Shown here: positions 1-41,915 of the stretch, piece by piece | Layout: each line of letters begins with the position of its first letter | Position numbering within the stretch: position 1 is the stretch's first letter | Assembly: GCA_944385795.1 (NCBI GenBank) | Contig: CALWYP010000038.1 | Span: 5,774-69,773, forward strand | Direction of reading: 5' to 3' | DNA: 64,000 nt | DNA from: an uncultured Oscillospiraceae bacterium | GTDB taxonomy: Bacteria; Bacillota; Clostridia; Oscillospirales; Oscillospiraceae | Notes under the pieces: generated by a model | What the model was told of the DNA's origin: nothing | The model's database searches: none | What the model saw: only the letters and a program-made list of their open reading frames with translations | Program-made: the position numbers and the translations under genes

Positions 1-1135
1 GGGCGACGCTTGTATGGCTTATGTCGCAGAGGCTGCCCGCAAGGCCGTCAATGTCCCTATCCTCAACGCGGGGAACCACACTCCCGAGACTGCGGTGAAG
101 CTCATTGCCGGCGGCAGCGCTGACTTTGTCATGTTCGGCCGCGGCCTTATCGCCGACCCCGACCTCCCGCGCAAGCTGCGTGAGAACCGCCGCGAGGACG
201 TCAGGCCCTGCATACGTTGCAATGAAGACTGCATAGGCCGCACGGGCGCCGCAAAAATGGCCATGCTCAGCTGCGCCGTGAACACCGAGGCCTGCCAAGA
301 GCGCTGGATGAGCATACCGCGCAGCGAAACCCCGAAGAAGGTGTGCATAATCGGCGCCGGCCCCGCAGGCCTGGAGGCTGCACGCACCGCCGCTATCTCC
401 GGCCACAAAGTAACTGTCTTCGAGGCTGCGGACAAGGTTGGCGGCATGGTTACCGCGGCAGAGACCCCGTCCTTCAAGGGCCAGCTGCGCTCGCTCATAA
501 AGTACTACGAAGTGCAGATGGAAAAGCTAGGCGTCGACCTAAGGCTCAACACCTATGTCCCCGCGGACTCTGAGCTGCTCGACGGCTATGACAGGTATAT
601 CGTCGCCGTCGGCACTGAACCCGCCAAACCGCCGATCCCCGGCCTTGACCGCGGCAATGTCATCACGGTCCAGGACGCTCACAGGCATAAGGAGCTGATA
701 AAAGGCAAAAACATCGTCATTTGCGGCGGCGGCCAGTCAGGCTGCGACTGCGCGCTCGAGTTAGCCATTGACTTTGGCCTTACCCCGGTGATAGTCGAAA
801 TGGCCGACCGCCTCAGCCCTGACCTCAATATGATGAGCCGCGCGGGCATGATGAGCAAGATCAACGAATACAAGGTCCGCGTTTACACCAGCTGCAAGGT
901 CAAGAGCGTCGAAGAAGACGGCGTGCACGTTGTTGACGGCAACGGCGCCGAAAAGGTTATTCCGGCAGACACTGTTATAAACGCTTTCGGCCTCAAGAAA
1001 TTGACCGGCTATGCCGAAGCCGTCCGCGACCGCTTTGGCTGGCGCGCGCGCATCATCGGCGACTGCGACAAGGTCGGACGCATAGGCACTGCGGTACGGG
1101 GCGGCTACTTTGCCGGGACTACCGTTGACGACTGA
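1..1135 (+). CDS. C-terminal part of an Old-Yellow-Enzyme / 2,4-dienoyl-CoA reductase (enoate reductase) family flavoprotein; the 5' end lies outside the window
   Basis: The reading frame of ORF 14..1135 is open to the window edge. It has the inter-domain Cys motif RPCIRCNEDC and a dinucleotide fold VCIIGAGPAGLEAA. It is collinear with about residues 290-640 of the full-length paralog at 3376..5298. Confidence 0.8.
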   Translation, partial: GDACMAYVAEAARKAVNVPILNAGNHTPETAVKLIAGGSADFVMFGRGLIADPDLPRKLRENRREDVRPCIRCNEDCIGRTGAAKMAMLSCAVNTEACQERWMSIPRSETPKKVCIIGAGPAGLEAARTAAISGHKVTVFEAADKVGGMVTAAETPSFKGQLRSLIKYYEVQMEKLGVDLRLNTYVPADSELLDGYDRYIVAVGTEPAKPPIPGLDRGNVITVQDAHRHKELIKGKNIVICGGGQSGCDCALELAIDFGLTPVIVEMADRLSPDLNMMSRAGMMSKINEYKVRVYTSCKVKSVEEDGVHVVDGNGAEKVIPADTVINAFGLKKLTGYAEAVRDRFGWRARIIGDCDKVGRIGTAVRGGYFAGTTVDD

Positions 1136-1303
1136 GCGGGGGGCCCAAGTATTCGAGCTGAGCGCCGTGTGGCGCGGCTACCGGCGCGTCCTCCGGCCTT
1201 GACGCGCGGAGCCGCTTTAAGCCCGGCAGCCCTAAGGCAATATGTAATTTCAGGCGGCCGCACAGGTTCCCTGTAAAATAAAGCACAAAAAGGAGAAGAG
1301 GTC

Positions 1304-2554
1304 ATGCAAAATTCAGCGAAAGGTAAGCGGTTTGGCATCATCGCTTTTATAACCGTCTGCCTGATACAGTTCGTGTACACCGGCGTCGTGTACAACCCCC
1401 TGAGCGTTTACACTGGCACCATACTCGCGGAGTTCCCCGAGTTCACCCGTTCCCAGTACGCTCTTTGCTTTACGATGATGAGCTTTATCTGCGCCATCGC
1501 CAACCTGTTCCTCGGCAAGCTGGTCGCGCTCATAAAGAGCCGGGGCGTCGTTGTCCTGGGCGGCACCCTGCTTGTCATAAGCATGTTTATTTACGCGAAC
1601 GCCAAATCCCTCGCCATGTTCTACATTGCCGCCCTGATCGTCGGCATTGCCTTTGCCTTTGTAGCTTCCGCTATCGGCGCCACGATTATTAATAAGTGGT
1701 TCTTTAAGCACAGCGGAACCTTCGTCGGTATCTCGTTGCTTTTCTCCGGCGTCGGCGGGACCATATTCAGCCCTGTCATCGGTTCCTGGATTGAGAGCGT
1801 CGGCTGGCGCCAGTCCTTTGTCATAGTCGGTATAATCGCCGCCGTCTGCACCGCTCTCATAGGCATATTCTTCCGCTCTGACCCTGAGGCTCTCGGCGTG
1901 AAGCCCATGTTTTATGAGGAAACGGCAGAAGCCGGTAAGGAGGAAGACGCCGGCAAGAACGAAGCCATTGAGACTGGCATGACTATCAAAGAGGGCGTCC
2001 GCACTTTCCGCTTCTGGGCGGTTATACTGGTATACCTCATAGTAGCCATAATCGTGTACTCCATCATGAGCATTATTTCCGTGTATGTTCAGGACCTTGG
2101 CTACTCTGCCGCCGAGGCCGGCGCTGCGCTTGCTCCGATGAATATAGTCAACATGTTTATGCCGTTCGTGATCGGTTTCCTGGCCGACCACATGGACACC
2201 CGCTGGGTTGTCGTAGGCGGCACGGCGCTCTTCTCTGTGGCGCTGTTCATCCTGCTTACGGGCCCGTCGCTCGCGCTCGTCTACGTCGTCGCAGCGCTAA
2301 CCGGCATCGGGATGGCCACTGGCAGAAGCACGCTGCCCATGGTTACCCGCCAGCTCTTCGGTACGAAGGACTATGCGAGCTTCATAGGCGTCTTCGTCGG
2401 CGTGTTCTCCGGCGGTATTGCCATTGGCAGCTATGTTATAGCCGCCTTCTATGACGCGTTCGGCAACTATGCCAGCGCTATGTACGCGTATATACCCGCC
2501 GCGGTTGTGGCGATAGTCCTCACCATTATCGCCTTCAGAGGCAAACGGGCGTAA
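1304..2554 (+). CDS. MFS-type transporter (about 12 predicted TM helices)
   Basis: 416 aa, hydrophobic throughout with a central charged loop (EETAEAGKEEDAGKNE) dividing two halves. RBS AAAGGAG lies upstream of the ATG. Confidence 0.75.
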   Translation: MQNSAKGKRFGIIAFITVCLIQFVYTGVVYNPLSVYTGTILAEFPEFTRSQYALCFTMMSFICAIANLFLGKLVALIKSRGVVVLGGTLLVISMFIYANAKSLAMFYIAALIVGIAFAFVASAIGATIINKWFFKHSGTFVGISLLFSGVGGTIFSPVIGSWIESVGWRQSFVIVGIIAAVCTALIGIFFRSDPEALGVKPMFYEETAEAGKEEDAGKNEAIETGMTIKEGVRTFRFWAVILVYLIVAIIVYSIMSIISVYVQDLGYSAAEAGAALAPMNIVNMFMPFVIGFLADHMDTRWVVVGGTALFSVALFILLTGPSLALVYVVAALTGIGMATGRSTLPMVTRQLFGTKDYASFIGVFVGVFSGGIAIGSYVIAAFYDAFGNYASAMYAYIPAAVVAIVLTIIAFRGKRA

Positions 2555-2597
2555 GCCATAACCATAACAATATAGATTAAGAAAGGAAGCATACGCA

Positions 2598-3347
2598 ATG
2601 AAAAAACTTGAAGGTTTCGCTATCGTCACCGGTTCCTCCCGCGGCCTGGGCCGTGAGATGGTGCTTCGCTGCGCCGCGGACGGCCACGACGTGGTTGTAA
2701 ACTACACTTCTGATAAGAGCAAGGCCGCCGCCGAGGCCGTCGCCGCCGAGGCTCGTGAGAAGTACGGCCGCCGCGCCCTGGTTATAAAGGCCGACGTCAG
2801 CAATTATGACGAGTGCAAGGCCATGGTCGAAGAGGCCAGCAAGTATTTTAACGACAGGCTAGCTATCCTGGTCGCTAATGCCGGCATAAAGAACCTGCTC
2901 GACTTCGACGAGCTTACTCATGAGGATTATGAGCGCGTAATCAAGGTCAACCTCATGGGCGTCATGCACATGGTTCACTGCGCTATCCCCTATATGAAGG
3001 ACGGCAAGGGCGCGTCCATCATCATGCTCAGCTCCATCGCCGGCCAGATGGGCGCAGCTAAGCGCGTCGATTACTCCACCACTAAGAGCGCCATGTACGG
3101 GTTCATGAAGGCCCTCTGCAGGGAGCTCGGCGACTATCTCATTCGAATCAACTGCATCGCTCCGGGTATGATCATGACCGACATGCTGCGCAACAACGAC
3201 CCCGAGATCCTCAAGGCCAATACCGCTGCCCAGTGCCTGCACTTCATAGCCGAGCCGGTCGAGATCGCCGATGCCATGAGCTACCTGAACCACGCCCAGT
3301 ATGTAGACGGCCAGGTCCTGGCGGTCAACGGCGGCTGGTATATGTAA
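2598..3347 (+). CDS. Short-chain dehydrogenase/reductase (FabG/BaiA-like SDR)
   Basis: 249 aa. It has an N-terminal TGSSRGLG cofactor motif, an NAG motif, and an S...YxxxK catalytic pattern (SSIAG ... YSTTKSA). Confidence 0.85.
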   Translation: MKKLEGFAIVTGSSRGLGREMVLRCAADGHDVVVNYTSDKSKAAAEAVAAEAREKYGRRALVIKADVSNYDECKAMVEEASKYFNDRLAILVANAGIKNLLDFDELTHEDYERVIKVNLMGVMHMVHCAIPYMKDGKGASIIMLSSIAGQMGAAKRVDYSTTKSAMYGFMKALCRELGDYLIRINCIAPGMIMTDMLRNNDPEILKANTAAQCLHFIAEPVEIADAMSYLNHAQYVDGQVLAVNGGWYM

Positions 3348-3375
3348 GCTATAGAAGCATAATAGAGAGGCTGCT

Positions 3376-5298
3376 ATGAGAGAAAGCAAACCTATACTTT
3401 TCCAGAAAGGGCATATTGGCCGCATGGAGACGAAAAACCGCATAGTCATGGCGCCGATGGGCACCACGGCTGACGGCGACGGCGGCTACTCTGCCAGGAC
3501 GATACGTTATTTTGCAGAGCGCGCAAAGGGCGGCACCGGCCTTATAATAACCGGCCGCAACGCCTCCGTGCTTGAGTTTGAAGGTTACTCCTGCTCAGCT
3601 CTCAGCAATTACCATCATGTCAACCGCCTTGCGGCGCTGGCCGATACCGTACATGCTTACGGCTGCAAGCTGTGCGTCCAGATAGGCCCGGGCCTGGGCA
3701 GGATAATGTATACCTCTGCGACAACGCCTCCTTATTCCTGCAGCCCGATCCCGGCGTTCTGGTTCCCCAACATGACCTGCAAGGAGCTCAGCGTTGAAGA
3801 TATAGCTTTTATAACCGACAAGGTTGGCTATTCTGCGAAGCTGGCCAAAGACGCCGGCGCCGACGCCATAGAGATGCACGCCTACGGCAGCTACCTTGCC
3901 GACCAGTTCCTCACTGAAGCCTTTAACCATCGTACCGATAAGTACGGAGGAAGCCTTGAAAACCGCGTCCGCTTCCTTGGCGAGTGCATCCAAGCGGTCC
4001 AGCGCTACTGCGGGGAGGACTTCCCGCAGATAGTCAAGTTCACTCCAGTTCACTGCCTGGATATACCCGGCTATCGCAAGCTCGAAGAGGGCGTCGAAAT
4101 CGCCAAGCTGCTCGAGAAATGGGGCGCTCACGCTCTGCATGTAGATACCGGCTGCTATGAGGTCTGGTATCGCCAGATACCTACCGTCTATCAGGACGAA
4201 GGCTGCCAGCTCTTTGCCGCCGAGGCGGTTAAGAAGGCTGTCAGCATTCCGGTTATAACCCAGGGAAAGCTACACCGCCCTGCGTTAGCCGAAAAGGTCC
4301 TGGAGGAGGGGAAGGCCGACTTCATAGCTCTCGGACATCAGCATATTGCTGACCCGCACTATGCTGAAAAGGTCAAGGAACATCGTGAAGGCGATATCCG
4401 TCCCTGCATTGGCTGCAACGAATGCCTGAGGCTCGGGCACCTTGGCCGCAACTACTCCTGCTCCGTCAACCCCGTTGCTCACCACGAGGACGATTTTCCG
4501 CTTACCCCAGACACAAAGGGCCTCAGAGTGCTTATCATAGGCGGCGGCCCGGGCGGCATGGTGGCTGCTTTGACCGCAAACTCGCGCGGCATGAAGGCTG
4601 AGATATGGGAAAAAACCGGCGAACTCGGCGGCCAGCTGCTCGCCGCCGGCGCGCCGCCCTTCAAGCGCGATGTGCGCAATTACGTCGAATACCTCAAGCG
4701 TCAGCTCAAGAAAGCCGGTATTCCTGTCAGGTTCAACTGCGAGCCCACCGCTCAAGAGATCGCTTTCGCCGGCTTCGACAGGGTCATCCTTGCCACAGGA
4801 GCAGTCGCCAACACGCCGGCTATCGCCGGTTCTGAAAATGCGGTCGAGGCTATTCCCGTGCTTAGGCAGCAGTGTGATATTGGCGGCGAATGCGTCATTA
4901 TAGGCGGCGGCGTCGTGGGCGTCGAGACGGCGCTCTTCCTTGACTCGCTTGGCAAGAAGGTAACGCTTACCGTGCGCAGCAAGCTCAAGTATGCCGACGA
5001 ATCCGTGAACAACGTTCAGTGCATGAACGATATGTTGAAGGAGTCCAACGTCACTGTCATGGAAGGCGCGGCGCCGGTTGAGATTAAAGACGGCAGCGTG
5101 GTTTTTGACTGCGGCGGGAAACGGGTAGAGCTCAAAAGCGATACGACTGTGCTCGCTACCGGCTATCACCCCGAGCGCGCCCTCGAAGAAGAACTCGATG
5201 GGCTTGGGATCGAATACGACGTGGTTGGAAACGCCGTGAAGCCGCGTAAACTTATTAACGCCACCAATGAAGCCTATCTGGCCGTGTGGCGTATGTGA
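3376..5298 (+). CDS. NADH:flavin oxidoreductase of the enoate reductase / 2,4-dienoyl-CoA reductase family (OYE TIM barrel, 4Fe-4S linker and FAD/NAD(P) domain)
   Basis: 640 aa. N-terminal OYE-like sequence (RIVMAPMGT, HAYGSYLADQFL), Cys cluster RPCIGCNECL, and a Rossmann motif VLIIGGGPGGMVAA. It is a paralog of the truncated gene at 1..1135. Confidence 0.85.
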   Translation: MRESKPILFQKGHIGRMETKNRIVMAPMGTTADGDGGYSARTIRYFAERAKGGTGLIITGRNASVLEFEGYSCSALSNYHHVNRLAALADTVHAYGCKLCVQIGPGLGRIMYTSATTPPYSCSPIPAFWFPNMTCKELSVEDIAFITDKVGYSAKLAKDAGADAIEMHAYGSYLADQFLTEAFNHRTDKYGGSLENRVRFLGECIQAVQRYCGEDFPQIVKFTPVHCLDIPGYRKLEEGVEIAKLLEKWGAHALHVDTGCYEVWYRQIPTVYQDEGCQLFAAEAVKKAVSIPVITQGKLHRPALAEKVLEEGKADFIALGHQHIADPHYAEKVKEHREGDIRPCIGCNECLRLGHLGRNYSCSVNPVAHHEDDFPLTPDTKGLRVLIIGGGPGGMVAALTANSRGMKAEIWEKTGELGGQLLAAGAPPFKRDVRNYVEYLKRQLKKAGIPVRFNCEPTAQEIAFAGFDRVILATGAVANTPAIAGSENAVEAIPVLRQQCDIGGECVIIGGGVVGVETALFLDSLGKKVTLTVRSKLKYADESVNNVQCMNDMLKESNVTVMEGAAPVEIKDGSVVFDCGGKRVELKSDTTVLATGYHPERALEEELDGLGIEYDVVGNAVKPRKLINATNEAYLAVWRM

Positions 5299-5356: not shown

Positions 5357-5448
5357 GAATATGGAGGCAAAATGGTTGCGCACGACGCTTTTTCTTTTTA
5401 ACTTTTAATTATACTTAGCCTGCATCTGTTTAATCACCGCCCCGTCCG

Positions 5449-8364
5449 TCATTCCGCGCCGCGCCGCCGTGCCCCCGCTGCGGAGCTTGCGGTACTGTCC
5501 TCCGGATGGCGTTCGGCATACAGCCTCAGCAATTCCCGCTGGCGCTTTGCGGCGATGGCCGCGTTGTGCCATTTACCGTAGTTGTACTCCTCAAGGCAGG
5601 GCTCCGCCGCGGTTTCCTGTATTCTTCTGGATGCAATAACGTATTCAAGCCGCTTTTCATCCGCGTTGCCAAGCTCTTCTTCGCACGACAGATATAGCTC
5701 CAGCTGTTCGCTTACGTCATACTCGTAGGAGAAATCCCGGAGCCGGCGGAGCAGCATCGCGGCCGCCTTTTCCAGAGCCTCGCGCGACAATTCCGCGTCC
5801 GGGATATTCCGCGCCAGGGCGCGGTACAGCCTGGCTTTCGCGCAGATTTCGCTCTCGTCCAGCCAGGCGTAGGCGAGCGTGCGCTCGCTCTCATCACAGG
5901 CCGCCATATCCGCGCCCAGGCGTCCCAGGCACCAGTTTTTGAGCTCTTCGAGGTGTTCCCGTCCCTCTTCCGGCCCGTTCCGCAGGCGGAAGCTCAGGGA
6001 CGAGAGCATATAGGCGAGCTGCACGGCGCGCCGTCCGGGCTCGAGGGAGCCGAGCAGGCCGCGTATCCCGCCGTTATCCATGCGCCCGCCGGCGGCGAGG
6101 CTGAAGAGCCATCTCGAGCCGAGCAGCCGGACGAAGACGGACTCCGCGCGGGAGGCGGACGCATATAGCGCTTCGTCGAAATCCGAGAAAAGCATGGCCG
6201 CGGCGAGGATGTCGAACATGAGCGGGGAGCGGATTTCATCCAGCAATTTGACGAAGCCCTCGGGATCGAGCGAGAGCATCAGCCGGTAGCCGGAGCTCAA
6301 CCACGCGCCGCCGGGATAGCAGACGTGCCCGGCGTAGTCGTAAAGGAGACGGAAACCAATCACGGAGGGCTTGGCCTCGCCTTTGAGCAGCTTGCGAAGC
6401 TCGAACGTGTCTGAATTCAGCCCCCCGTCCGCGAAGCCTATGCCGGCCTCGCGCGCCCTGGCAATCTCAGCGAACCCGGCGGCGATTTCCCCTGCCGGCA
6501 CGAGGCCGTTTCCGCGGACCGCCTCTTCAAAAACGCCGTGAAGGGTGCAGATCATCTCCGAAGCGAACTCGGCCAGGGCGCGGCAGGCGGCGCCCTTGTC
6601 CCCGTCCCAGTGGCTCAGGATTATGGCGACGGCGCCCTCCAGCTCCGTTTCGCCGACGTCCAGCCGCCCGTTTTCACCGTAATAAGCGGAGAGCCAGCCG
6701 GATTCCCTCAATACGCCGCGCTCGGGCTCAGGGCGCGGCGCTTCCGCGGCGGAGTCGTACAGCACCTCGCAGGTGATCTGGCCGGGCTTTTTCGACCCTG
6801 GTTTAGCGCCGCCGCAGAGACCGCGCAGGTAATCCAATACCTCAAGGCAGACCTCGCGCCCGAGCGGGGCCATGGTGAATGGCTGCCTCGCGCCCATCGA
6901 ATTGAGGGAGTTGCTCATGAGGAAGCCGTCGGCGGAGCCGTCCTTGAAGCGGCGTATGAGGAAGCGGTCGTGAAAAACCTGCGCGTTCCCCCGCCTGAGG
7001 TCGCGTATCCTGAGGTTCTTATGAAGGATGGCGGCGTTGCCGGCGGTGAAACGCCTGACGCCCTCCCTTATCTTCTCGTATTCCACGCTGGAGCCGGTGT
7101 CCGGGTCCATGCCGCCGAGGCTGGAGAGTATCTCGAGCCGTATCTCCGGATGTTCTATGCGGCTGAGCAGCTTGATCGCGGACTCGGCGGAGAAGTACGG
7201 GTCGGCGATTATAACCTTGCTTACGGAGCCGAGGTCTATGTACTCCTTTACCTTCAGGAAGCTGTCGATCTCGCCTCCAACGCCGCCGCCGGGAACAAAA
7301 GCGCCGCGGCTTTCGCCGTCTCTATAGGGCCGCGTGAGCGCGTCTCCCGCGCGCATGGCCGCGTCTATTTCGCCCAGCGCGGGGCTTCTTATTTCGCTCC
7401 TGACGCCGCTGTGGGCGCGGCTCACGCTTTCGACGCTGCGCTTTATCTCGTCCGCCATGCCGGGGGCGGACTTGCGGAGCTTTTTAGTCCAGGGGTCGGA
7501 AAGCCCGAGGCCGGGCTCCATAAGGCTGCCGTTGAGGCTGATGGACATCACCATGGTCATATCGTATCTGTACACCAGCTCCGAGCTCTCCGCGTCCCAG
7601 ATTTGGACGGAAATGCGGCTCATTGGCTCCGCGGCGGTGAAGCGCGCCGACCCTTCCTCCGGCATGAGCAGCTTGCAGCGGTTTATTATAACGCGGCCGC
7701 AGTGCTCGGCGAGGCAGTTCACGATAAGCGGGCGCGGGCAGGGGGCGAGGCGCTTTACCTCGGCCGTTTTCAGCGGCCGCCGGTTGTCGACTTCAACGGC
7801 GAAGCCATCCGGCATCGCCAGCGGCTCAAAGCTCTCGAAGTTGCCCAGCCTGTGGCCGTCCTTGAGCAAATCGACGCCGCTCTCCTCTCTGACCCAGCCG
7901 AAGAGGGCGCGCGCGCCGCGGTACCTTGCGGCTTCGCCGCCGCAGTCCAGGCTGCTTAGGACCTCGTTGAAAAGGCTGTTCTTGTCCAGGCTCCAGAGCT
8001 CCCTGAGCCTTGAACAGCGTTCGAGCGGCCCGCTCTCGCCGGACAGGCTGCCGGCGGAGAAAACCTCCATGCGCGGCGTGAGGCGCGGCGAAGGCAGAGA
8101 GATTTTGCCGCAGCTTATGCGCCCCGGTTCGGTGAGGGCTTTCTCAAAAGCGCCGGCCTCGGCGGCGGACATGATCGCCCGGCATACCGCCCTTCCGTGG
8201 TCTGTGTCGCAGCGCCAGCGCATAGGTTCCCGCCCCGTCCGGGCGCTGAAGCCGTATATGAGCAGATATTCCGCGCCGGCCTTGTGCAGCAGCAGCTTTA
8301 TGAACCTGTTCGTTCCGTCCAAAAACATCCCCTCCAATTTGAGCGCTCGCTTTTTATACAGCAT
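5449..8364 (-). CDS. Large orphan protein (~970 aa) with a central PLD-like (HxR...SxN, MIT_C-like) motif and a helical C-terminal half; function unknown
   Basis: Long minus-strand ORF with normal amino-acid composition. The track start (8481) is probably too far upstream. Candidate starts are ATG 8364 and ATG 8328 (the latter directly preceded by GGAGGGG). Motifs: IIADPYF ... VFHDRFLIRRF(x9)LMSNSLNSMG, with the His codon at 6970..6972. Confidence 0.6.
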   Translation of the reverse strand: MLYKKRALKLEGMFLDGTNRFIKLLLHKAGAEYLLIYGFSARTGREPMRWRCDTDHGRAVCRAIMSAAEAGAFEKALTEPGRISCGKISLPSPRLTPRMEVFSAGSLSGESGPLERCSRLRELWSLDKNSLFNEVLSSLDCGGEAARYRGARALFGWVREESGVDLLKDGHRLGNFESFEPLAMPDGFAVEVDNRRPLKTAEVKRLAPCPRPLIVNCLAEHCGRVIINRCKLLMPEEGSARFTAAEPMSRISVQIWDAESSELVYRYDMTMVMSISLNGSLMEPGLGLSDPWTKKLRKSAPGMADEIKRSVESVSRAHSGVRSEIRSPALGEIDAAMRAGDALTRPYRDGESRGAFVPGGGVGGEIDSFLKVKEYIDLGSVSKVIIADPYFSAESAIKLLSRIEHPEIRLEILSSLGGMDPDTGSSVEYEKIREGVRRFTAGNAAILHKNLRIRDLRRGNAQVFHDRFLIRRFKDGSADGFLMSNSLNSMGARQPFTMAPLGREVCLEVLDYLRGLCGGAKPGSKKPGQITCEVLYDSAAEAPRPEPERGVLRESGWLSAYYGENGRLDVGETELEGAVAIILSHWDGDKGAACRALAEFASEMICTLHGVFEEAVRGNGLVPAGEIAAGFAEIARAREAGIGFADGGLNSDTFELRKLLKGEAKPSVIGFRLLYDYAGHVCYPGGAWLSSGYRLMLSLDPEGFVKLLDEIRSPLMFDILAAAMLFSDFDEALYASASRAESVFVRLLGSRWLFSLAAGGRMDNGGIRGLLGSLEPGRRAVQLAYMLSSLSFRLRNGPEEGREHLEELKNWCLGRLGADMAACDESERTLAYAWLDESEICAKARLYRALARNIPDAELSREALEKAAAMLLRRLRDFSYEYDVSEQLELYLSCEEELGNADEKRLEYVIASRRIQETAAEPCLEEYNYGKWHNAAIAAKRQRELLRLYAERHPEDSTASSAAGARRRGAE

Positions 8365-8796
8365 AGCAAAAAACCGCGGCCCGGGCAAGCGTGCCGCCGG
8401 GGCGCGGGGTATGTTCACGGCGGTTTGCCATGCCGGCGGCCTTTGGGTAAAATGACGGCAATACCCGCAAGGCATATGCATAAAACTTTGTTCGCGGAAT
8501 TAATATTATACAGCTTTAACGCGGGCGCGGGCCGCCGCGCCGGGGGAGCCAGGCCCGAATTTTCCGGGCGGCATGTGTGGGCGTGAAGCGGGACAGAAAA
8601 AACTTTTTCCGGCAGATTTCGCCTCATTTCCCTTTTCTTCGCCGCTTTTGTACATTTTAACGGATGAATTAGTTTTACATAACTGAACAGAAGCAACGTT
8701 ATGGGATTATTTAAGGCGTACATATTCCAGCAGAAAGAAATAATGGAATTAAAAAGCAATTCTTCTTCGTCAATACAATGAAATTTGTTTACCATG

Positions 8797-8836
8797 TGGT
8801 ATAATGTTGAAATTAATCCCCTTGTGATGATATAAT
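8797..8836 (+). promoter_or_regulatory. Two tandem extended -10 promoters upstream of the SLH protein gene
   Basis: TGgTATAAT at 8797..8805. TTGAAA (8807..8812), an 18-nt spacer counted to the TATAAT hexamer at 8831..8836, and the extended -10 TGaTATAAT (8828..8836). Both sit in a markedly AT-rich intergenic region. Confidence 0.5.
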
Positions 8837-8894
8837 TTGTACAAGTCCTCGTGATTTCGAGGGCTGAATTTATATTTACAGGGAGGAAGAGAGG

Positions 8895-10709
8895 ATGAAG
8901 AAAGCGGCTTTCACGGCGCTGGTTATTGTGATTATGGCGGCGCTTCTGGGCGCTGCCCCGGGTAAGTTTGCGGATATAATATGCGACCCACCCAAAGGGA
9001 CCAAGGCCGACATCAATTTTATATTTGTCGATGAAACAGGCAACGAAATCTATTCGGAGCTCAAGGAAGGCGTGGGCGCGTGGAACGCAAATATAAATAT
9101 TAAAGTGAACTCGGGCGAAATTGAAGACGTCGTCCCGACGGTCGGCCGCTTCAACAGCAGCAGCATCGACGGCGCGGAAGCCGTGCTCAGCTTCTCATGC
9201 CCGAACGGAAGCACGGAGACAATATGGATAACGGTCAGCGGGGCGGAGCTCGAAGAAGAGGGACTGCCGCTGGCCGTTTCTGTTTCAGAGGCCAGAAAGA
9301 TGCTGCAGGCCGCGGGCGTGGAGGCCGCGGACGCTCAGATAGAGTCCGTGAGCATGAGCTCCGGGCTGGGCGAAACGGAGTTCGTAAAGAGCGGGGAGAA
9401 TTTCATAGCCGAAATCGGCAAAGCCTTCAACGAGAGCACGACTTTTGAACTCAATATTGCCTATTCCTCGGCCGTAAGGGGGCAAATTACAATACCTTCG
9501 GGGAACGTGTCCGTCCTCACAGCGTTCAGCGGCTGGGAGCTGTTTTCCGCGAAAGAGGTATACGTCGTGAAGTTCGTGGACAGCGTGAGCGTGATCGAAA
9601 CCAGGTACGTCGAAGAGGGCAGCGTGCTCGGCCCGCTGCCGGAATATGAGGCCGAGGGCTTCTCCGGCTGGACCTGTTCGGGCGAGGCTGTGGGCTCCTG
9701 GACCGAGGTAGGCTCAAACATGACCATCGAGGCCGGCTTCAGCGAAGAGGCGGACTCGGAGCTCGTATACATCTCCAACGACGACGGGGAATTCGTCTCG
9801 ATGCTCGAGTCCGAGTTCGGCCCCATAGACGACTACAGCTTCCGGGCGCGCCTGGAGGGCCGCTTCGAACACGGCAACGAGAACTACTATAAGAACGGCT
9901 GGGAAGACGACGGAACGGTCTATATTGTCTATAATTGCGACGCAAACGAGGGCGACAGGGATAAGTACGAAAATAAGTATGTTTCGTATAGAGATTTTAC
10001 GGCTCTGAGAATATATGCAGAGGCAAACGGACAGGAAATAAGTAAAGTGTTGAGCGAAGACGAGCTCTATGTGGACTACAGCGGGGGCGTATGGCAGATC
10101 GCGCTCAAGCCGCGCGCCTTTACCCAGCTGGACACCAGCACGGGCTGGGCCTATATGGACGGGCGGGGCGAGCGGCTGTTCGCGCCCGAGGAGAATATAA
10201 CGAGGGGAGAGGCCTGCGCGATCTTCTTCCGCTGCCTGACGGCGGAGAGCCGCGCCGCGCTGACCCAGCGCGAGCAGTTCGGCGACGTGGACGTGAACGA
10301 CTGGTTCTACGACGCGGTCACCAAGCTCGCGGCTGCCGGCGCGATAGACGGCTGGAACGGCATGTTCGCGCCGGACACGGACATCACGCGCGCGGAGTTC
10401 ACCGCCCTCGCCGTGCGGACGGCCAACATCCAGCCGATCTCCGGGACATATTTCGCCGACGCGGCGGGGCATTGGGCCGAGGGCGAGATTAACGCGGCGG
10501 CGCGGCTGGGCATAATCGGCGGCTATCCCGACGGGAGCTTCCGCCCGGACGCCCGTATAACCCGCGCCGAGGCCGTCACCATCCTCAACGGCATACTCGG
10601 CCGCGAGGGCTCGGTGCCCGGCTGGGCGGCCGCGTGGGACGACGTGCTGCCCGGGGCCTGGTACTTCGCCGACGTGGCCCTCGCCACAACGGGGGAAATG
10701 CGCGAGTGA
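8895..10709 (+). CDS. Secreted cell-surface protein with C-terminal S-layer-homology (SLH) repeats
   Basis: N-terminal signal-like segment MKKAAFTALVIVIMAALLGAAPG. C-terminal SLH-like repeats (FGDVDVNDWFYDAVTKLAAAGAIDG; FADAAGHWAEGEINAAARLGIIGGYPDGSFRPDARITRAEAVTILN). RBS GGGAGGAAGAGAGG. Confidence 0.8.
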   Translation: MKKAAFTALVIVIMAALLGAAPGKFADIICDPPKGTKADINFIFVDETGNEIYSELKEGVGAWNANINIKVNSGEIEDVVPTVGRFNSSSIDGAEAVLSFSCPNGSTETIWITVSGAELEEEGLPLAVSVSEARKMLQAAGVEAADAQIESVSMSSGLGETEFVKSGENFIAEIGKAFNESTTFELNIAYSSAVRGQITIPSGNVSVLTAFSGWELFSAKEVYVVKFVDSVSVIETRYVEEGSVLGPLPEYEAEGFSGWTCSGEAVGSWTEVGSNMTIEAGFSEEADSELVYISNDDGEFVSMLESEFGPIDDYSFRARLEGRFEHGNENYYKNGWEDDGTVYIVYNCDANEGDRDKYENKYVSYRDFTALRIYAEANGQEISKVLSEDELYVDYSGGVWQIALKPRAFTQLDTSTGWAYMDGRGERLFAPEENITRGEACAIFFRCLTAESRAALTQREQFGDVDVNDWFYDAVTKLAAAGAIDGWNGMFAPDTDITRAEFTALAVRTANIQPISGTYFADAAGHWAEGEINAAARLGIIGGYPDGSFRPDARITRAEAVTILNGILGREGSVPGWAAAWDDVLPGAWYFADVALATTGEMRE

Positions 10710-10777: not shown

Positions 10778-13135
10778 TTATCTAGGTTTCTTTGCCCGCG
10801 CCGGCGCGCCGGCGAGACGGGCGGCGGCGGCCAGCGGCCGGCCGTTGGCCAGCTCCGCGAGGGCGGCGAAAAGCCCGCCCCTTATGCCGCCGTTTATCTG
10901 CATGGTGCGCAGGGGCGCGCCGGCGGACGAGGCCAGCATCATACGGTAGCGCGGGTCGCCCCTGTCCCAGCCGAAGCCGCGGGCTATCCAGGCCTCTATG
11001 CCGAAATACGCGAGGCGCATGAGGGCCGAGGAGGCGCGCATCTCCATCACGGAGCTGTCCAGGGAGTACCCGCCCTTCGCCGGGGCGGGGGCGGTATGCG
11101 CGCGGCCCAGCATGGCCTCCCACTGGCCGCGCGGCGGCGCGCCCGCGGGCCGCTCGTACCAGCTCCCCGGCTGCCAGGCGGGGACGGGCAGCTCCTCGCC
11201 GGCGACGTCTATGCTCCCGCGCAGGCGCAGGTCGTCCGAGCCACCGCCTATGAGCACGGAGTAGGCCCCGGCGGGCACGCGCCAGCCGTCCTGCCAGACG
11301 GCGAAGCTCCGCGGCGTGAGCGTGAAGTTTATCTCCGCGCTCTCGCCGGGACGGAGGAAGACCTTCCTGAAGCCGCGCAGCTCCTTCGCCGGGCGGTGTA
11401 CGCCGCCATGTGGCGGGGCTATATAGAGCTGGACGGCCTCCGCGCCCGGGACCGCCCCCGTGTTCTTCAGGGAAAACGAGACGGACATGCCCTCTATCCT
11501 CAGGCCCGAGTACTCAAACCTGGTGTAGGACAGCCCGTGGCCGAAGGCCCAGCGGGGCCTGACACCGGCCTTGTCGTAGTACCTGTAGCCGACGTAGACG
11601 CCCTCGCGGTATTCGCAGTCGCGCCCGGAGGCGAAGCAAGCGCTGCTGGCGCAGTCTCCGTACCTGAAGGGCCAGCTCTCGGCGAGCTTGCCCGAGGGGT
11701 TGACGCGGCCGTAGAGCAGGTCGGCGGCCGCCGAGCCGCCCGCCTGGCCGGGCAGGCCCATATAGAGCACGGCGTTGACCCTGTCCGCCCAGGGGCACTC
11801 CACGGGCCCGCCGCAGCTCAGCACCACGACGGTGTTGGGATTCGCCGCCGCGGCGGCCTCTATGAGCCTGAGCTGGCCCTCGGGCATGGACATGCCGTCG
11901 CGGTCGAAGCCCTCGCTCTCGTACTTCGCGGGCAGCCCGGCGAACACCACGGCGGCGTCCGCGTCCCTCGCGGCGAAGACGGCCTCGTTCAGCATGGCCG
12001 GGGCCGTGGAGCCGTCGCCCGCGCAGCCCTGCGCGAAGGCCGCGCCCGGCATGGCGTCCAGCGCGCTGGTCAGGCGCGTGGGGTTTATGTGGCTGGAGCC
12101 GGAGCCCTGGTATCGCGGCTCCCTGGCCATGTCGCCGATGAGCGCCACCTTCCAGCCGGGGTCAAGGGGCAGGGCGCCTTTGTTTTGCAGCAGCACCGCG
12201 CCCTCCGCGGCGGCGCGGCGCGCGAGGGCGTCGTGCTTATCGAAGCCGGGCCCGCCCTCGGGCGCCCTGCGGGCCGCGCCTATGAACTCCAGCACGCGGC
12301 GGGCGCACTTGTCCAGCTCCCCGGCGTCCAGGGCGCCGGAGAGCGCCGCCCGCCTGACGTCCTTGAACATATAGCGGCTGCCCCCGGGCATATTGAGGTC
12401 GCAGCCGGCGCGGAAGCCCTCGACGCGGTCGTGCATCGCGCCCCAGTCGGTGACGACAAGGCCGCCGAAGCCCCACTCGTCCCGGAGTATGCCCGTGAGC
12501 AGGCGCTTGTTGTCGCTGCAATACACGCCGTTTAGCTTGTTGTAGGCGCACATGACGGCGGCCGGCGCCGCCTCTTTGACGGCGGCCTCGAAGCCGGCGA
12601 GGTAAATCTCGCGCAGGGTGCGCTCGTCCATGACGCTGTCGGAGCTGAAACGCGAGGCCTCGCGGTTGTTGGCGGCGAAGTGCTTTATGCACGCGCCCGT
12701 GCCGTTGGCCTGGAGCCCCTTTATGTGCGCGGCGGCGAGCCCTCCCGTGAGGAAGGGGTCCTCGGAGAAGTACTCGAAATTGCGCCCGCACAGGGGGTTG
12801 CGCTTTATGTTCGCGGCCGGGCCGAGGACGAGCGCCACGCCCAGGGCGCGGGCCTCCTCGCCTATGGCCGCGCCGACCTCGCGGACTAGGGCCTCGTCCC
12901 AGGAGCCGGCCAGCGTGACGGCGGCCGGGAAGCAGGTGGACGGGGCCGAGCGGTTGACGCCGAGCATGTCCATGTCCTCCGTATCCTGCTTCCGGAGCCC
13001 GTGCGGGCCGTCGCACATGAATACGGAGGGTATACCGTACCTGGCGAAGCCCCGCGTCTGCCAGAAGTCCGCGCCCTCGCAGAGCGCTATCTTGTCGTCC
13101 AGGGACATGGCCCTCAGCACGGCTCCGGCGTCCAT
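10778..13135 (-). CDS. Glycoside hydrolase family 3 beta-glucosidase-like enzyme
   Basis: GH3 hallmarks: CDGPHGLR, KHFAANN, and GFGGLVVTDWGAM (nucleophile Asp context). Start moved to ATG 13135, which follows GGAGGG. The track start 13174 lacks an RBS. Confidence 0.85.
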   Translation of the reverse strand: MDAGAVLRAMSLDDKIALCEGADFWQTRGFARYGIPSVFMCDGPHGLRKQDTEDMDMLGVNRSAPSTCFPAAVTLAGSWDEALVREVGAAIGEEARALGVALVLGPAANIKRNPLCGRNFEYFSEDPFLTGGLAAAHIKGLQANGTGACIKHFAANNREASRFSSDSVMDERTLREIYLAGFEAAVKEAAPAAVMCAYNKLNGVYCSDNKRLLTGILRDEWGFGGLVVTDWGAMHDRVEGFRAGCDLNMPGGSRYMFKDVRRAALSGALDAGELDKCARRVLEFIGAARRAPEGGPGFDKHDALARRAAAEGAVLLQNKGALPLDPGWKVALIGDMAREPRYQGSGSSHINPTRLTSALDAMPGAAFAQGCAGDGSTAPAMLNEAVFAARDADAAVVFAGLPAKYESEGFDRDGMSMPEGQLRLIEAAAAANPNTVVVLSCGGPVECPWADRVNAVLYMGLPGQAGGSAAADLLYGRVNPSGKLAESWPFRYGDCASSACFASGRDCEYREGVYVGYRYYDKAGVRPRWAFGHGLSYTRFEYSGLRIEGMSVSFSLKNTGAVPGAEAVQLYIAPPHGGVHRPAKELRGFRKVFLRPGESAEINFTLTPRSFAVWQDGWRVPAGAYSVLIGGGSDDLRLRGSIDVAGEELPVPAWQPGSWYERPAGAPPRGQWEAMLGRAHTAPAPAKGGYSLDSSVMEMRASSALMRLAYFGIEAWIARGFGWDRGDPRYRMMLASSAGAPLRTMQINGGIRGGLFAALAELANGRPLAAAARLAGAPARAKKPR

Positions 13136-13250
13136 TCCCGTCCCTCCTTCCTGATAAAAATAACGATGATACAAACGCTCCCGGGCCGCCGCGCGCCCGG
13201 ATAAAAGCCAAGGCCCGGGGCGCGCGCCGCCGGGCCTTCCCGTCCCCGGC

Positions 13251-14864: not shown

Positions 14865-15054
14865 ATGTTGCACCTCTTTGTGGATATAAGTTACGCGCGC
14901 CGCGCGGAGCGCCCGCGGCCGGCGCGCAGCCCTGAGGCCACTTAATTATAACAGCCCGATGCGGATTTGTATAGTGAAAAAACATCCTATTTTGGCCTGG
15001 AAATCGTTAAATTTCGCACTAACTTTGCGCAATTAACCCTTAACCGGACGGCAA

Positions 15055-15080
15055 GGGCCCGCGGCATCGGCCGCGGGCCC
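15055..15080 (-). terminator. GC-rich hairpin downstream of the lyase gene
   Basis: GGGCCCGCGG-CCGATG-CCGCGGGCCC on the minus strand just after the stop codon. The U-tract is weak. Confidence 0.45.
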
Positions 15081-15108
15081 CGGGGTTGGCGTATCCTGTA
15101 GGCGCCTT

Positions 15109-16557
15109 TTACAGGCTGTCGCCGAAATCGGCGCGGAACTTGGCGGCGAGCTTTTCCTCCCAATCGCTGGTGGGCTCGAGCCGGCCGAAGAAGAAGCGCA
15201 GGCTGCTCGGCTCCTCGACCCAGCGCAGGCCGCCGACGAGCTCGCGGTTCTCGAACAGCCAGCTTATGCGGTCTACCGCGTAGAGCACCTGGCTCATTGT
15301 GAAGACGCGCCTGGGCATGGCGAGGCGCAGGAGCTCCACGTCGGCGATGGGCTCCGTGCCGTCGGGCTCGCGCTGCTCGCTGAGCGTGCCGCGCTCCATG
15401 CCGCGGATGCCGCCGGCGATGTACACGGCCGCGGCCAGGGCGCCGGCGGGGTACTCGTGGTCGTCGATATGCGGCAGGAACTCGCGCGCGTTGAGGTGGC
15501 AGCCCAGGCCGCCGGCGGGCGTCACGACCGGCACGCCGTGTTTTTGCGGCTCGCGGGTCATGAAGTCGATGAAGATCGGGCCCTGGCTTATGACGTCCTC
15601 GTCCATGGTCTCGTCGAGGCCGACGGTGATGGCCTCCATCTCGCGCACGCTCATGCCGCCGTAGGTGAGGAAGCCCTCGTACATGGGCACCAGCTCGCGC
15701 ATGGCCTCGAAGTGCTTTTTGTCGTGTATCGCGATGCAGCCGCCGCGGGCGAAGCCGAACTTGCGCGCGGAGAAGTAGATGATGTCGAACTCGTCGGCCA
15801 CGGCGCGGGTTATCTCGCGTATGCTCATGCCCTTGCAGGCTTCCTCGCGGGTCTTTATGAAGTAGAGGTTGTCCTGCAGCAGGCTCGCGTCGAGGACGGT
15901 CATGATACCGTTCTCGCGGCAGATCCCGCAGACGTCGCGCATGTTCTGAAGGCTGAGCGGCTGGCCGCCAATGAGGTTCGTGCCGGCCTCGATACGGAGG
16001 AAGGGTATGTGCTCCACGCCGGTGTCGGCGATGAATTTCCTGAGCTTGCCGAGGTCTATGTCGCCCTTGAAGGGGTCGTCGCTCGTGGTCTTTATGCCCT
16101 CGTCCTTGACGAGCTCGGCCACGCTGGCGCCGAGGCGGGTGATATGCGCCTTGGTCGTGGTGAAGTGGAAGTTCATAGGCACCACGTCGCCGGGCTTCAC
16201 AAAGGCGACGGCCAGGATGTTCTCGCAGGCGCGGCCCTGGTGGGCGGGGAGGAGGAAGTCGGTGCCGAAGAGCTCGTGCACCTTCGCCTCGAGCCGGTCG
16301 AAGCTGGCGCTGCCGGCGTAGCTGTCGTCGCATATCAGCATGGCGGCGGTTTGTCGGTCGCTCATGCCGTTTACGCCGGAATCGGTGAGCATGTCGAGGA
16401 AGATGTCCTTGTTCTTGAGCAGGAAGGTGTTGTTCCCAGCCTCCGTGATGGCCTCGAGGCGGCGCTCGACGCTCTGTAGGTTGAGCTTCTGGACCATGCG
16501 CACCTTGTGCAGCTCGAGGGGGATGTCCATACCCGTGAAGAACTTGATGTTTGCCAT
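15109..16557 (-). CDS. tpl: PLP-dependent beta-eliminating lyase, tyrosine phenol-lyase-like (tryptophanase/TPL family)
   Basis: Family-typical blocks FLDMLTDSGVNGMSD, PAHQGRACEN, GGQPLSL and SARK (PLP Lys context). It has FTTT and LRFF where, as I recall them, tryptophanases have FDTT and LRHF. This favours TPL over tryptophanase. Confidence 0.7.
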   Translation of the reverse strand: MANIKFFTGMDIPLELHKVRMVQKLNLQSVERRLEAITEAGNNTFLLKNKDIFLDMLTDSGVNGMSDRQTAAMLICDDSYAGSASFDRLEAKVHELFGTDFLLPAHQGRACENILAVAFVKPGDVVPMNFHFTTTKAHITRLGASVAELVKDEGIKTTSDDPFKGDIDLGKLRKFIADTGVEHIPFLRIEAGTNLIGGQPLSLQNMRDVCGICRENGIMTVLDASLLQDNLYFIKTREEACKGMSIREITRAVADEFDIIYFSARKFGFARGGCIAIHDKKHFEAMRELVPMYEGFLTYGGMSVREMEAITVGLDETMDEDVISQGPIFIDFMTREPQKHGVPVVTPAGGLGCHLNAREFLPHIDDHEYPAGALAAAVYIAGGIRGMERGTLSEQREPDGTEPIADVELLRLAMPRRVFTMSQVLYAVDRISWLFENRELVGGLRWVEEPSSLRFFFGRLEPTSDWEEKLAAKFRADFGDSL

Positions 16558-16619
16558 GATTTTTAGCTCCTTCTTTTTTAGTCTTGGAGGAGCCGTTTGG
16601 CGGCGGTCCCACCGGGTTT

Positions 16620-16925
16620 TGAGGAAAAGAAAAACGCCCTTCCTCTCAATAGAGGACGAGCGCCAAATCCCGTGTTACCACCTCAGTTCGCCGTCACCTC
16701 ACGATAACGGCCTTTTCGAGTGCGTCGGCAAAAGCCGAGATACTCTATCTCTGTAACGGGAGAAGCCCGGCCCGGCCTACCGGCGCTGACGCGCTTTCGT
16801 GGAGCGGCTCGTGCGTGTATTCCCGGGGCGGTCCTGATGCCTCGCAGCAACCGGCACTTCTCTGAAGGTCCCGTTACCCGGTACTATTCCGCAGTCACAG
16901 CCGTTGGCCTGTGTGAACTTGCTTT
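16620..16925 (-). promoter_or_regulatory. T-box riboswitch leader, probable Tyr (UAC) specifier
   Basis: Minus strand features: AG-bulge/distal-loop block AGAGAAGUGCCGGUUGCUGCGAGGCA. Specifier-type internal loop with AGUA opposite GAA-UAC-A (UAC at 16819..16817). T-box sequence GAGGUGGUAACACGG (16671..16686). Terminator UCCUCU-AUUG-AGAGGA plus a U-run (about 16625..16664). Confidence 0.75.
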
Positions 16926-16927
16926 GA

Positions 16928-16956
16928 ATTATAATCTCGCCGCTTTAAATTGTCAA
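16928..16956 (-). promoter_or_regulatory. Consensus sigma-A promoter driving the T-box leader
   Basis: TTGACA (16956..16951), a 17-nt spacer, then TATAAT (16933..16928) on the minus strand. Confidence 0.75.
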
Positions 16957-17008
16957 CTGGGAAAATAGTGAATTGTGGGCAGAGAAAGGGAGGGAGATTT
17001 GTGGATTG

Positions 17009-17473
17009 TCACAGCCCGCCCTCCGTCAGCTCGGCCAGCAGGCCGGCGAGGCCCTCGCTCAAATCGTCCCAGGTGGCGCGGAAATCCCCCGTGTACCAGG
17101 GGTCGGCCACCTGCTGCCCGGAGCGGCCGCAGTGGTCGAGCAGTAGGGAGATCTTCCCCTCCGGGTCCCCGCCGGAGAGGCGGCGCAGGTTGCGCAGGTT
17201 CTCGTTGTCCATGCAGATTATAAGGTCATATTGGTCATACTCCGCGCGCGCCATGCGGTGCGCCGCGTGCCCCGCGCAGCCTATCCCGTGCGCGGCGAGC
17301 TCCCGCCGGGCGGGCGGGTAGACGGGGTTGCCGAGCTCCTCCGAGCTGGTGGCCGCCGAGCGTATGTAGAACCTCCCGCCGGCGCCGGCCTTTTTGACCA
17401 TGTCCTTGAACATAAATTCCGCCATAGGCGAGCGGCAGATGTTGCCGTGGCAGACGAATAAAACTTTTATCAT
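17009..17473 (-). CDS. Low-molecular-weight protein-tyrosine phosphatase
   Basis: N-terminal P-loop VCHGNICRSPMAE (CX5R-S) and a C-terminal DPWY-type Asp loop (VADPWYTGD). Confidence 0.85.
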   Translation of the reverse strand: MIKVLFVCHGNICRSPMAEFMFKDMVKKAGAGGRFYIRSAATSSEELGNPVYPPARRELAAHGIGCAGHAAHRMARAEYDQYDLIICMDNENLRNLRRLSGGDPEGKISLLLDHCGRSGQQVADPWYTGDFRATWDDLSEGLAGLLAELTEGGL

Positions 17474-17629
17474 CTGTTTAGCTCTCCTGACTCTGCTGAA
17501 TTATACTTAAATATGCCGTGTTTTGCTCAATAGGCGAAGGCAGGGCTGGCGCTGTGCCGTGTCCATAGACGGACGCTCCGCCGCGGCCAAGTTCCGCGGC
17601 GCCGATAACAGGCCCCGGGGCGGAGGCCT

Positions 17630-18214
17630 TTACTTTTTGGGGTAGTGTATCACCATCACGGCGCGAGTTAGGGCGTCGGAGGCGCTGCGGTATGTATGCG
17701 GCTGATCCCCGCGGTAGTGTATGGCCGAGCCTCGAGGAACCGTATAGCGTTCGCGCCCCGCGCTCCCGAGGGTTATCTCTAGCGCGCCCTGATACACAAG
17801 CACGAACTCCTCCGTGCCATCGGCGTGGGCGCTGCTGTCCGAAACCGAGCCGGGGTCGAGCTCAAGATCGAGCATCTCAAAGTCCCGCCCGGGCCGAACC
17901 TTAAATATGGGATAGAGCCTGAAATGCCCCCTGTCGTTGAGCAGCGGGGTCATATCTGCCTCATTTACTATAGTGATGCCCTGCTCGCTGCGCTCCATGA
18001 GCGATGTAAAGGACACGTTGAGCCCGGTTGCGATTTTCCAGAGCGTTGAAATGGTTGGGCTGGATTCCCCGCGCTCTATCTGCCCGAGCATGCTTTTGCT
18101 TACCCCGGTGCGCTCGGAAACCTCGCCAAGGCTCAGCTGCGCCTGCGCGCGCAGGGCGCGAAGGTTTTCGGCAATAACGCGGTTCATATCCGTGGCTTCT
18201 TCTATATTGGGCAT
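17630..18214 (-). CDS. XRE-family HTH transcriptional regulator with a C-terminal cupin sensor domain
   Basis: HTH segment LSLGEVSERTGVSKSMLGQIERGESSPTISTLWKIA, followed by a cupin-like beta region (EEFVLVYQGALEI ... IHYRGDQPHTY). RBS GGAGGG lies 9 nt upstream. Confidence 0.8.
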   Translation of the reverse strand: MPNIEEATDMNRVIAENLRALRAQAQLSLGEVSERTGVSKSMLGQIERGESSPTISTLWKIATGLNVSFTSLMERSEQGITIVNEADMTPLLNDRGHFRLYPIFKVRPGRDFEMLDLELDPGSVSDSSAHADGTEEFVLVYQGALEITLGSAGRERYTVPRGSAIHYRGDQPHTYRSASDALTRAVMVIHYPKK

Positions 18215-18327
18215 GCGATGACTCCCTCCTCGACGTACGCTATAGCGTCTGATACATTTATACCACCCGCCGCTGGAAAGTACAACAAAATTTTTTGCTC
18301 ATGCGCTAAAAATGTGCCTGTCATCTG

Positions 18328-18384
18328 TTGACAATGAAAATGAAATGTGTTATCTTTAACGCACAGATGAGTGCGTTATAACGC
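18328..18384 (+). promoter_or_regulatory. Promoter with an overlapping operator-like repeat upstream of the glycyl radical enzyme gene
   Basis: TTGACA (18328..18333), a 17-nt spacer, then TATCTT (18351..18356). Immediately after comes the perfect inverted repeat TAACGCAC-AGATGA-GTGCGTTA (18357..18378) and a third half-site TAACGCA (18378..18384). Confidence 0.5.
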
Positions 18385-18431
18385 ATTACAAGCGCAGGAT
18401 TACATTCAGCTTTAAAGAAAGGATGACAGGC

Positions 18432-41914: not shown

Positions 41915-41915
41915 A

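Follow-up and report, generated by a model that had tools for sequence, protein, structure and literature searches.

A diverged VPA1262/Juno family protein of gut Clostridia with a predicted phospholipase D-like core and a fast-evolving C-terminal helical domain

Proteins of the VPA1262 family were renamed "Juno" in a preprint of August 2026, in which genes from Pantoea agglomerans and Vibrio parahaemolyticus, each cloned alone in E. coli, gave more than 100-fold protection against T4, lambda-vir, and two BASEL phages (bioRxiv 10.64898/2026.08.01.741415). The preprint describes the function of the family as previously unknown and its distribution as Gram-negative, proposes no mechanism, and mentions no phospholipase D (PLD)-like or nuclease domain for Juno (bioRxiv 10.64898/2026.08.01.741415). 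Here, we analyze a gene that lies on the minus strand of a 64,000-nucleotide stretch of DNA (the window) from an uncultured Oscillospiraceae bacterium (GenBank assembly GCA_944385795.1, contig CALWYP010000038.1, positions 5,774 to 69,773). An earlier note, made from the letters of the window, had described the product of this gene as an orphan protein with a PLD-superfamily-like motif. We find that the gene is an ordinary member, from a Gram-positive clade, of a known and recently validated defense family and not a new kind of system. Our favored reading, which we hold to be reasonably probable, is that the protein acts as a stand-alone Juno-type defense protein, with a PLD-like effector whose active site would be dimeric and a C-terminal region that would serve as sensor or autoinhibitor.

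The NCBIfam model of the N-terminal domain, NF040700 (VPA1262_N_dom), matches residues 118-504 of the window protein over profile positions 89-475 of 478, with 202.8 bits against a cutoff of 80 (E 8.7e-60). Throughout, residue 1 is the methionine encoded by ATG 8328, which gives a count of 959 aa. The match to the full-length model NF040699 extends only over profile positions 16-580 of 1026, i.e., the N-terminal half. The rest of the protein is linked to the family by transitive homology. A homolog from Flavonifractor plautii (P0016), which is 40% identical over 98% of the query and carries the NCBI name VPA1262 family protein, scores 504 bits against NF040699 (cutoff, 325) over profile positions 9-1025, and the C-terminal halves of the Clostridial clade and of the long forms of the family align by hhalign with a probability of 99.3% (E 2e-20), or 98.9% with a stricter template set. 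Judged from these sequence comparisons, the gene product is therefore a diverged, full-length VPA1262/Juno family member of a Bacillota/Clostridia clade. It resembles the described Juno proteins in passing the N-terminal model, in its length (~1000 aa) and order of domains, in its homologous C-terminal domain, in the DP[FY]F and FHDR motifs common to annotated members (e.g., an Anabaena plasmid protein), and in being a stand-alone gene of a family often found in defense islands. It differs from them in its clade, the genera of the preprint being Gram-negative, in a C-terminal half too diverged for the full-length cutoff, and in a locus outside a defense island.

The label of orphan does not hold for a protein of a named NCBIfam family, in which an exhaustive profile search (E up to 0.001) recovered 642 representative clusters at 50% identity. 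Of the 76 proteins returned by the homolog search, nearly all come from Clostridia-type gut metagenomes, and all 36 sampled members match both NCBIfam models. Three architectures occur in the family, with lengths of ~960 aa (the Clostridial clade), 1000-1300 aa, and ~520 aa (core only). Many members of the last type (P0154, P0157, P0164, and P0170, at ~500-530 aa) consist of the beta-rich and PLD-like domains only (profile positions ~135-505), and some members therefore dispense with the N-terminal modules as well as with the C-terminal helical domain. A tblastn search of plasmids found only members from Anabaena, Nostoc, Agrobacterium, and Shewanella. The window protein itself had no match in Pfam (E up to 1) or in PADLOC, and searches of PDB sequences with the single sequence and with a 42-sequence profile gave nothing meaningful. 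The earlier remark that the termini carry no recognizable motif is thus right as far as Pfam goes; both termini are nonetheless conserved parts of the family.

AlphaFold2 modeling of the full-length protein with 42 homologs gave a confident model, with a predicted local distance difference test score (pLDDT) of 87.6 and a predicted template modeling score (pTM) of 0.72. It divides the protein into five parts, namely beta modules (residues 1-110), a helical linker (116-150), a beta-rich domain (160-335), an alpha/beta domain (340-530), and an all-alpha repeat domain (540-959). The beta-rich domain contains the conserved motifs RLGNFE, EP.S, and DPW, and its residues G162, N163, E234, W244, and W280 are invariant among the 42 homologs. 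Mean pairwise identity is 51% in the alpha/beta domain and 29-37% in the rest of the protein, with the lowest value (29%) in the C-terminal helical domain, which we regard as a candidate sensor or regulatory module. A Foldseek search of the PDB with the whole model returned mostly weak matches to beta-sandwiches, including fibronectin type III (FN3)/immunoglobulin (Ig)-like and glycoside hydrolase family 2 (GH2) beta-sandwiches for the N-terminal region, and to helical repeats; PPK1, at a probability of 1.0, was the sole informative match. A search of viral structures (BFVD) with the same model gave nothing at E up to 0.001. Because the whole-model search was uninformative apart from PPK1, residues 335-535 were modeled separately.

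The separate model of this domain (pLDDT, 89.6; pTM, 0.87) places it in the PLD superfamily, as the earlier note had proposed. The top 47 PDB matches in Foldseek are all PLD-superfamily folds, with E-values down to 1.1e-4 and a probability of 1.0 for almost all of them. They include the C domains of PPK1 (E 1.1e-4), yeast Tdp1, TrmB/TrmBL2, NucT, Zucchini, Streptomyces PLD, FAM83, vaccinia F13, and Nuc, and the target-normalized TM score is 0.63 to both NucT and Nuc. The His, Arg, Ser, and Asn residues of the window protein stand at the positions of the HKD (His-Lys-Asp) motif of canonical PLD enzymes. In the domain model, the His lies immediately before a beta-hairpin and the S-x-N in the loop after it, and this placement of H453 and S-x-N is, as modeled, the topology of an HKD motif. 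At the sequence level, PLDc_2 (Pfam) was matched weakly by 4 of 42 homologs (best E, 0.0093). An hhalign comparison of the domain profile with the canonical PLD of neighboring type IV restriction enzymes gave a probability of 0.2% with a template of only two sequences, and since that template is too small, the equivalence of the HKD residues rests on topology and not on alignment.

The motif goes well past what chance would produce. The HxR...SxN motif with Lys replaced by Arg, pointed out from the translation at the outset, is real, and the coordinates given for it are exact: nucleotides 6892..7221 encode KVIIADPYFS ... FHDRFLIRRFKDGSADGFLMSNSLNSMG, with the His codon at 6970..6972. Twelve residues (D376, P377, F379, S380, K386, L388, R390, H453, R455, G468, S474, and N476) are invariant in the 42 homologs, down to 20% identity. 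In a wider, family-wide set of 36 sequences with a mean column identity of 18%, which includes the PGAP-annotated Anabaena protein, D376, P377, H453, D454, R455, and S474 remain invariant and N473 is nearly so. Of the 212 family sequences with 400 aa or more, 207 contain FHDR. Invariance of N476 is confined to the Clostridial clade; Q, H, or S takes its place in others. The segment IIADPYFS forms what we take to be the strand-loop-helix opening typical of PLDc_2 domains. From the model and this pattern of conservation, we infer that the HxR-variant PLD core is probably catalytic.

Among described PLD proteins, the domain is close to the single-lobe HKD nucleases (Nuc 1BYR, NucT 6EHI, Zucchini/PLD6 4GEL, and BfiI), with which it shares the fold (probability, 1.0; target-normalized TM, 0.45-0.63) and the presence of one His motif per chain, before a beta-hairpin and followed by S-x-N. 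It differs from them in the invariant Arg in place of Lys, in an invariant Asp between His and Arg, in the lack of an Asp at +7, in being embedded in a 957-aa multidomain protein, and in having no Pfam PLD match at threshold. The type IV restriction enzymes that combine PLD, helicase, and DUF3427 domains, and MkoB/MkoC of Mokosh, similarly join a presumed PLD effector to large noncatalytic or sensor regions, and PLD-containing type IV/Mokosh-type genes co-occur with homologs of the window protein in the same islands. Unlike these fusions, the window protein lacks helicase and ATPase domains, and the neighbors keep the canonical HxK...GSSN where the VPA1262/Juno family has HDR. A specific relationship to MIT_C (PF16565), which the earlier note had suggested, was not borne out. 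None of the 42 members matches Pfam MIT_C (E up to 10), MITD1 is not among the 50 PDB matches listed, and no MIT three-helix domain is seen at the N-terminus, where the first 110 residues are beta-strands in the model. The domain has in common with MIT_C a PLD-superfamily fold and the lack of a canonical HKD signature; the VPA1262/Juno family has the invariant His and Arg and lacks an MIT domain. MITD1 is reportedly noncatalytic.

On the favored reading of a stand-alone Juno-type defense protein, the PLD-like domain would be the effector, a phosphodiesterase with a His nucleophile and most likely a nuclease, in which Arg455 would bind phosphate in place of the lysine of a canonical HKD motif. 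Each chain has one motif and one PLD-like lobe; a second lobe in residues 160-335 was considered and ruled out, as this region consists of nine consecutive beta-strands. With a single motif per chain, an active site would require homodimerization, for which Nuc, NucT, Zucchini, and BfiI are precedents. Recognition of a phage component, or inhibition of the enzyme before infection, may be the task of the rapidly evolving C-terminal helical domain, perhaps assisted by the N-terminal beta domains. Consistent with the single-gene activity in the preprint, no partner is conserved across homolog loci.

The genomic surroundings of the homologs often point to defense. A relative with 79% identity adjoins Hma (SNF2 helicase plus DUF1156 methylase), an SLFN/AlbA-like gene, and a ParE/Phd pair, and the neighborhood of a relative with 53% identity includes a DUF2971 gene and a type IV restriction enzyme. 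Elsewhere, homologs are accompanied by restriction enzymes of type IV or type I, an MkoC/PDC-S37-like helicase, an Avs4-like protein, the candidates PDC-S34, S07, S01, and S11, DrmD, and mad3. The F. plautii copy lies directly beside genes of mobile elements (Tn916-like, relaxase, and resolvase). The proposal of a stand-alone defense or nucleic acid-targeting effector in the earlier note agrees with the single-gene anti-phage activity of the family in the preprint and with the defense islands around many homologs; the window locus itself is not such an island. It is flanked on one side by an operon of flavin oxidoreductase, major facilitator superfamily (MFS) transporter, and short-chain dehydrogenase/reductase (SDR) genes and on the other by a gene for an S-layer homology (SLH) protein, followed by a glycoside hydrolase family 3 (GH3) gene and a DHH-CBS pyrophosphatase gene. 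Twelve chicken gut contigs with an identical neighboring oxidoreductase were read, eight places of which are shown. At the eighth place, the contig is 2.6 kb long and breaks off within a minus-strand gene located at the corresponding position.

Two further features of homolog loci were followed. A divergent NUDIX (NUDIX_4) gene of ~145 aa, overlapping a second small gene, lies directly upstream of the 79% and 53% relatives only, and was ruled out as a conserved partner because neither the window nor the other loci contain it. The single match in a phage collection is MT836961.1 (2286-6976), an 8-kb fecal scaffold labeled UNVERIFIED "Bacteriophage sp.", on which a frameshifted homolog of 32% identity is split into two open reading frames (ORFs) next to a gene for an OLD/GajA-like ATP-dependent nuclease. 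The scaffold is no evidence for carriage by a phage; it has the look of a bacterial defense islet and not of a phage.

Several observations weigh against the reading of a catalytic, stand-alone defense protein. The window protein has no Pfam PLD match at E up to 1, and the strict signature HxK(x)4D(x)6G[ST]xN is absent, given the invariant Arg for Lys, the lack of an Asp at +7, and a longer hairpin. The noncatalytic binders TrmB and FAM83 are found among the PLD-fold matches. Its score against the full-length NF040699 (235.2 bits; E 1.2e-69) lies under the cutoff of 325, its identity to non-Clostridial members is ~20% or less, and the wider profiles A3 and A5 retrieved only Clostridial, cyanobacterial, or other relatives, with the tested Vibrio/Pantoea proteins absent. 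Single-gene phage protection is known only for the Gram-negative P. agglomerans and V. parahaemolyticus members, and the evidence for defense is one preprint that used plasmid expression in a surrogate host. Lastly, the window copy has no flanking defense or mobile element gene, the remainder of the window is core metabolism, and a full-length gene occupies the same housekeeping locus in seven of the eight places shown.

The doubts about chemistry could be met by a Juno family defense protein whose PLD-like domain is a noncatalytic binding module, as in TrmB, FAM83, and MITD1, which would bind nucleic acid, nucleotide, sugar-phosphate, or membrane and leave the effector function to another region or act by sequestration or assembly. 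Such a module would account for the rank of TrmB/TrmBL2 and FAM83 among the best fold matches, for the substitution of the HKD lysine, for the absent +7 Asp, and for sequence profile scores under the Pfam PLD thresholds. We nevertheless consider it unlikely: the His, Arg, Ser, and neighboring Asn are (nearly) invariant over very large distances, as is typical of catalytic sites, the change from Lys to Arg is conservative for phosphate binding, and searches of the protein with Pfam, PADLOC, NCBIfam, and fold comparison gave no further enzymatic domain. If the core is catalytic, its substrate could still be something other than DNA. In one version, which we judge to be decidedly unlikely, the H-D-R site would be the effector of the whole Juno family without being a conventional nuclease and would use phospho-His chemistry on a nucleotide, polyphosphate, lipid, or covalent protein-nucleic acid adduct, as PPK1 and Tdp1 do, with the variable C-terminal domain as phage sensor. 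A related and slightly less probable proposal treats the domain as a phosphotransferase and not a nuclease, acting on nucleotides or polyphosphate by PPK1-like phospho-His chemistry or on lipids in the manner of a PLD, that would defend the cell by depleting or modifying a metabolite or membrane component. The C-terminal domains of PPK1 are indeed the single best structural match (E 1.1e-4) and were recovered at a probability of 1.0 with the whole model. However, the E-values of Tdp1, NucT, Zucchini, and Nuc are within one or two orders of magnitude, the highest target-normalized TM (0.63) belongs to nuclease-type PLDs, the model contains no PPK1 ATP-binding or head domain, and the translated sequence has no membrane segment or signal peptide.

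A different explanation sets defense aside and assumes a housekeeping or other nondefense role in the host organism, or a domesticated relic. It draws on the metabolic and cell envelope neighbors, on the retention of the gene at one locus among related contigs, and on its normal base composition, with a GC (guanine plus cytosine) content of 0.642 in the gene and 0.629 in the window, so that no compositional anomaly is seen and the earlier statement that composition gives no sign of recent acquisition stands. The protein is, however, intact and keeps all family-invariant residues, and single defense genes outside islands are common. Moreover, the 79% and 53% relatives are found at different loci next to defense genes, which argues for horizontal movement of a defense gene and not for vertical descent of a housekeeping gene. 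We regard this explanation as the least probable of those considered, and very improbable in itself, and retain the Juno-type defense protein with a PLD-like effector as the favored reading.

The positions of the features named in this study are given below. The gene is single and intact, and its ORF spans 5449..8481 when counted from the first ATG. Most likely, judging from the sequence around the candidate codons, translation starts at the TTG at 8322 and yields 957 aa. This start is preferred because of the spacing of the GGAGG, which would leave just 2 nt before the ATG at 8328, because a gene of 957 aa is called on five of the eight related contigs shown, and because it reproduces the N-terminal family consensus MxxxNYFIKLL.

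Table 1. Positions of the VPA1262/Juno gene, its predicted domains and motifs, and flanking features (window coordinates, except for the NUDIX_4 gene, which is given on contigs of relatives)
Feature	Position	Strand	Basis or remark
VPA1262/Juno family coding sequence	5449..8322	-	957 aa from TTG 8322; stop codon 5449-5451
Alternative upstream starts (ATG)	8328, 8364, 8481	-	
Putative ribosome-binding site GGAGG	8331..8335	-	8 nt upstream of TTG 8322; read from sequence
N-terminal beta-strand region, small beta-sheet/sandwich modules (residues 1-110)	7999..8328	-	AlphaFold2 block pLDDT 64-96, mostly >90
Beta-rich domain, part of VPA1262 N-terminal domain (residues 160-335)	7324..7851	-	nine consecutive strands, then helices
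PLD-superfamily-like alpha/beta domain (residues 340-530)	6739..7311	-	most conserved part; putative catalytic core
First PLD-type motif IIADPYFS..K.L.R (strand, PYF loop, helix)	7159..7212	-	invariance
HKD-like motif HDRFLIRRFKDGSADGFLMSNSLN (H453, R455, S474, N476), Lys to Arg	6901..6972	-	translation, invariance
C-terminal all-alpha repeat domain (residues 540-959)	5452..6711	-	~22 helices in model
Perfect inverted repeat, 16-nt arms	5323-5338/5341-5356	.	inverted-repeat search; between the convergent oxidoreductase gene and the VPA1262/Juno gene
AT-rich divergent intergenic region	8323..8894	.	between the VPA1262/Juno gene and the SLH domain gene
NUDIX_4 gene in contigs of relatives	L012:5342-5776; L008/L016:9348-9788		

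The inverted repeat downstream of the gene, described earlier as a perfect terminator, is a perfect repeat; the hairpin has no T-run or T-tract, and a terminator scan made no call there. It could be a shared terminator of both convergent genes. The AT-rich region upstream of the gene noted from the raw sequence is evident in the GC content of 0.448 at 8501-9000. Promoter-like sites were found in the divergent intergenic region on the plus strand only (8807-8836 and 8778-8805), and no gene is called inside it on related contigs. This region presumably holds the promoters of both divergent genes. Contigs from metagenomic RNA-Seq of chicken gut (runs X15, X18, and X20) cover the VPA1262/Juno and SLH genes patchily across window positions 5400..10700, and contigs of run X18 leave the upstream oxidoreductase operon uncovered; this is a weak hint at most that the VPA1262/Juno gene is transcribed in vivo.

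Other parts of the window yielded observations of their own. The upstream operon (14..5298, plus strand; also L001:13184-20657 on a related contig) encodes two fusions of NADH:flavin oxidoreductase with pyridine nucleotide-disulfide oxidoreductase (~640-650 aa), an MFS transporter of 416 aa, and an SDR of 249 aa, and farther along a protein of ~435-450 aa without Pfam match, a PucR-like regulator, and a zinc-dependent alcohol dehydrogenase. This composition appears to resemble that of bile acid-inducible (bai) clusters (BaiCD/BaiH, BaiG, and BaiA). The GH3 beta-glucosidase-like gene (10778..13174, minus strand) lies in a stretch with a GC content of 0.69-0.74, well above the window mean of 0.63, and several related long-read contigs show it broken into two or three ORFs, probably by assembly indels. 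An ORF of 541 aa (14987..16612, minus strand) has no Pfam or PADLOC match, and smaller genes (301 aa and 169 aa) are called there on L001. When the remaining ORFs of the window (16000..64000) were pooled for PADLOC, isolated components were matched, namely mad3 in three ORFs (best E, 1.6e-32), PD-T4-2_B (2.9e-33), and AriA/LmuB/RmrA/GajA-like ATPases, which are probably matches to generic domains (ABC ATPases and phosphoesterases).

Taken to the level of the family, the range of VPA1262/Juno now includes gut Clostridia, with members in chicken and human gut metagenomes. What is new here is a PLD-fold core with an unusual invariant His-Asp-Arg motif, together with a C-terminal helical domain that is the fastest evolving part of Juno/VPA1262. 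These features offer a mechanistic hypothesis for Juno, in which a PLD-type phosphodiesterase effector would be joined to a variable sensor. If the reading of phospho-His chemistry on a non-DNA substrate were true, the family would represent a mechanistically new form of single-protein immunity that extends from Vibrio to gut Clostridia.

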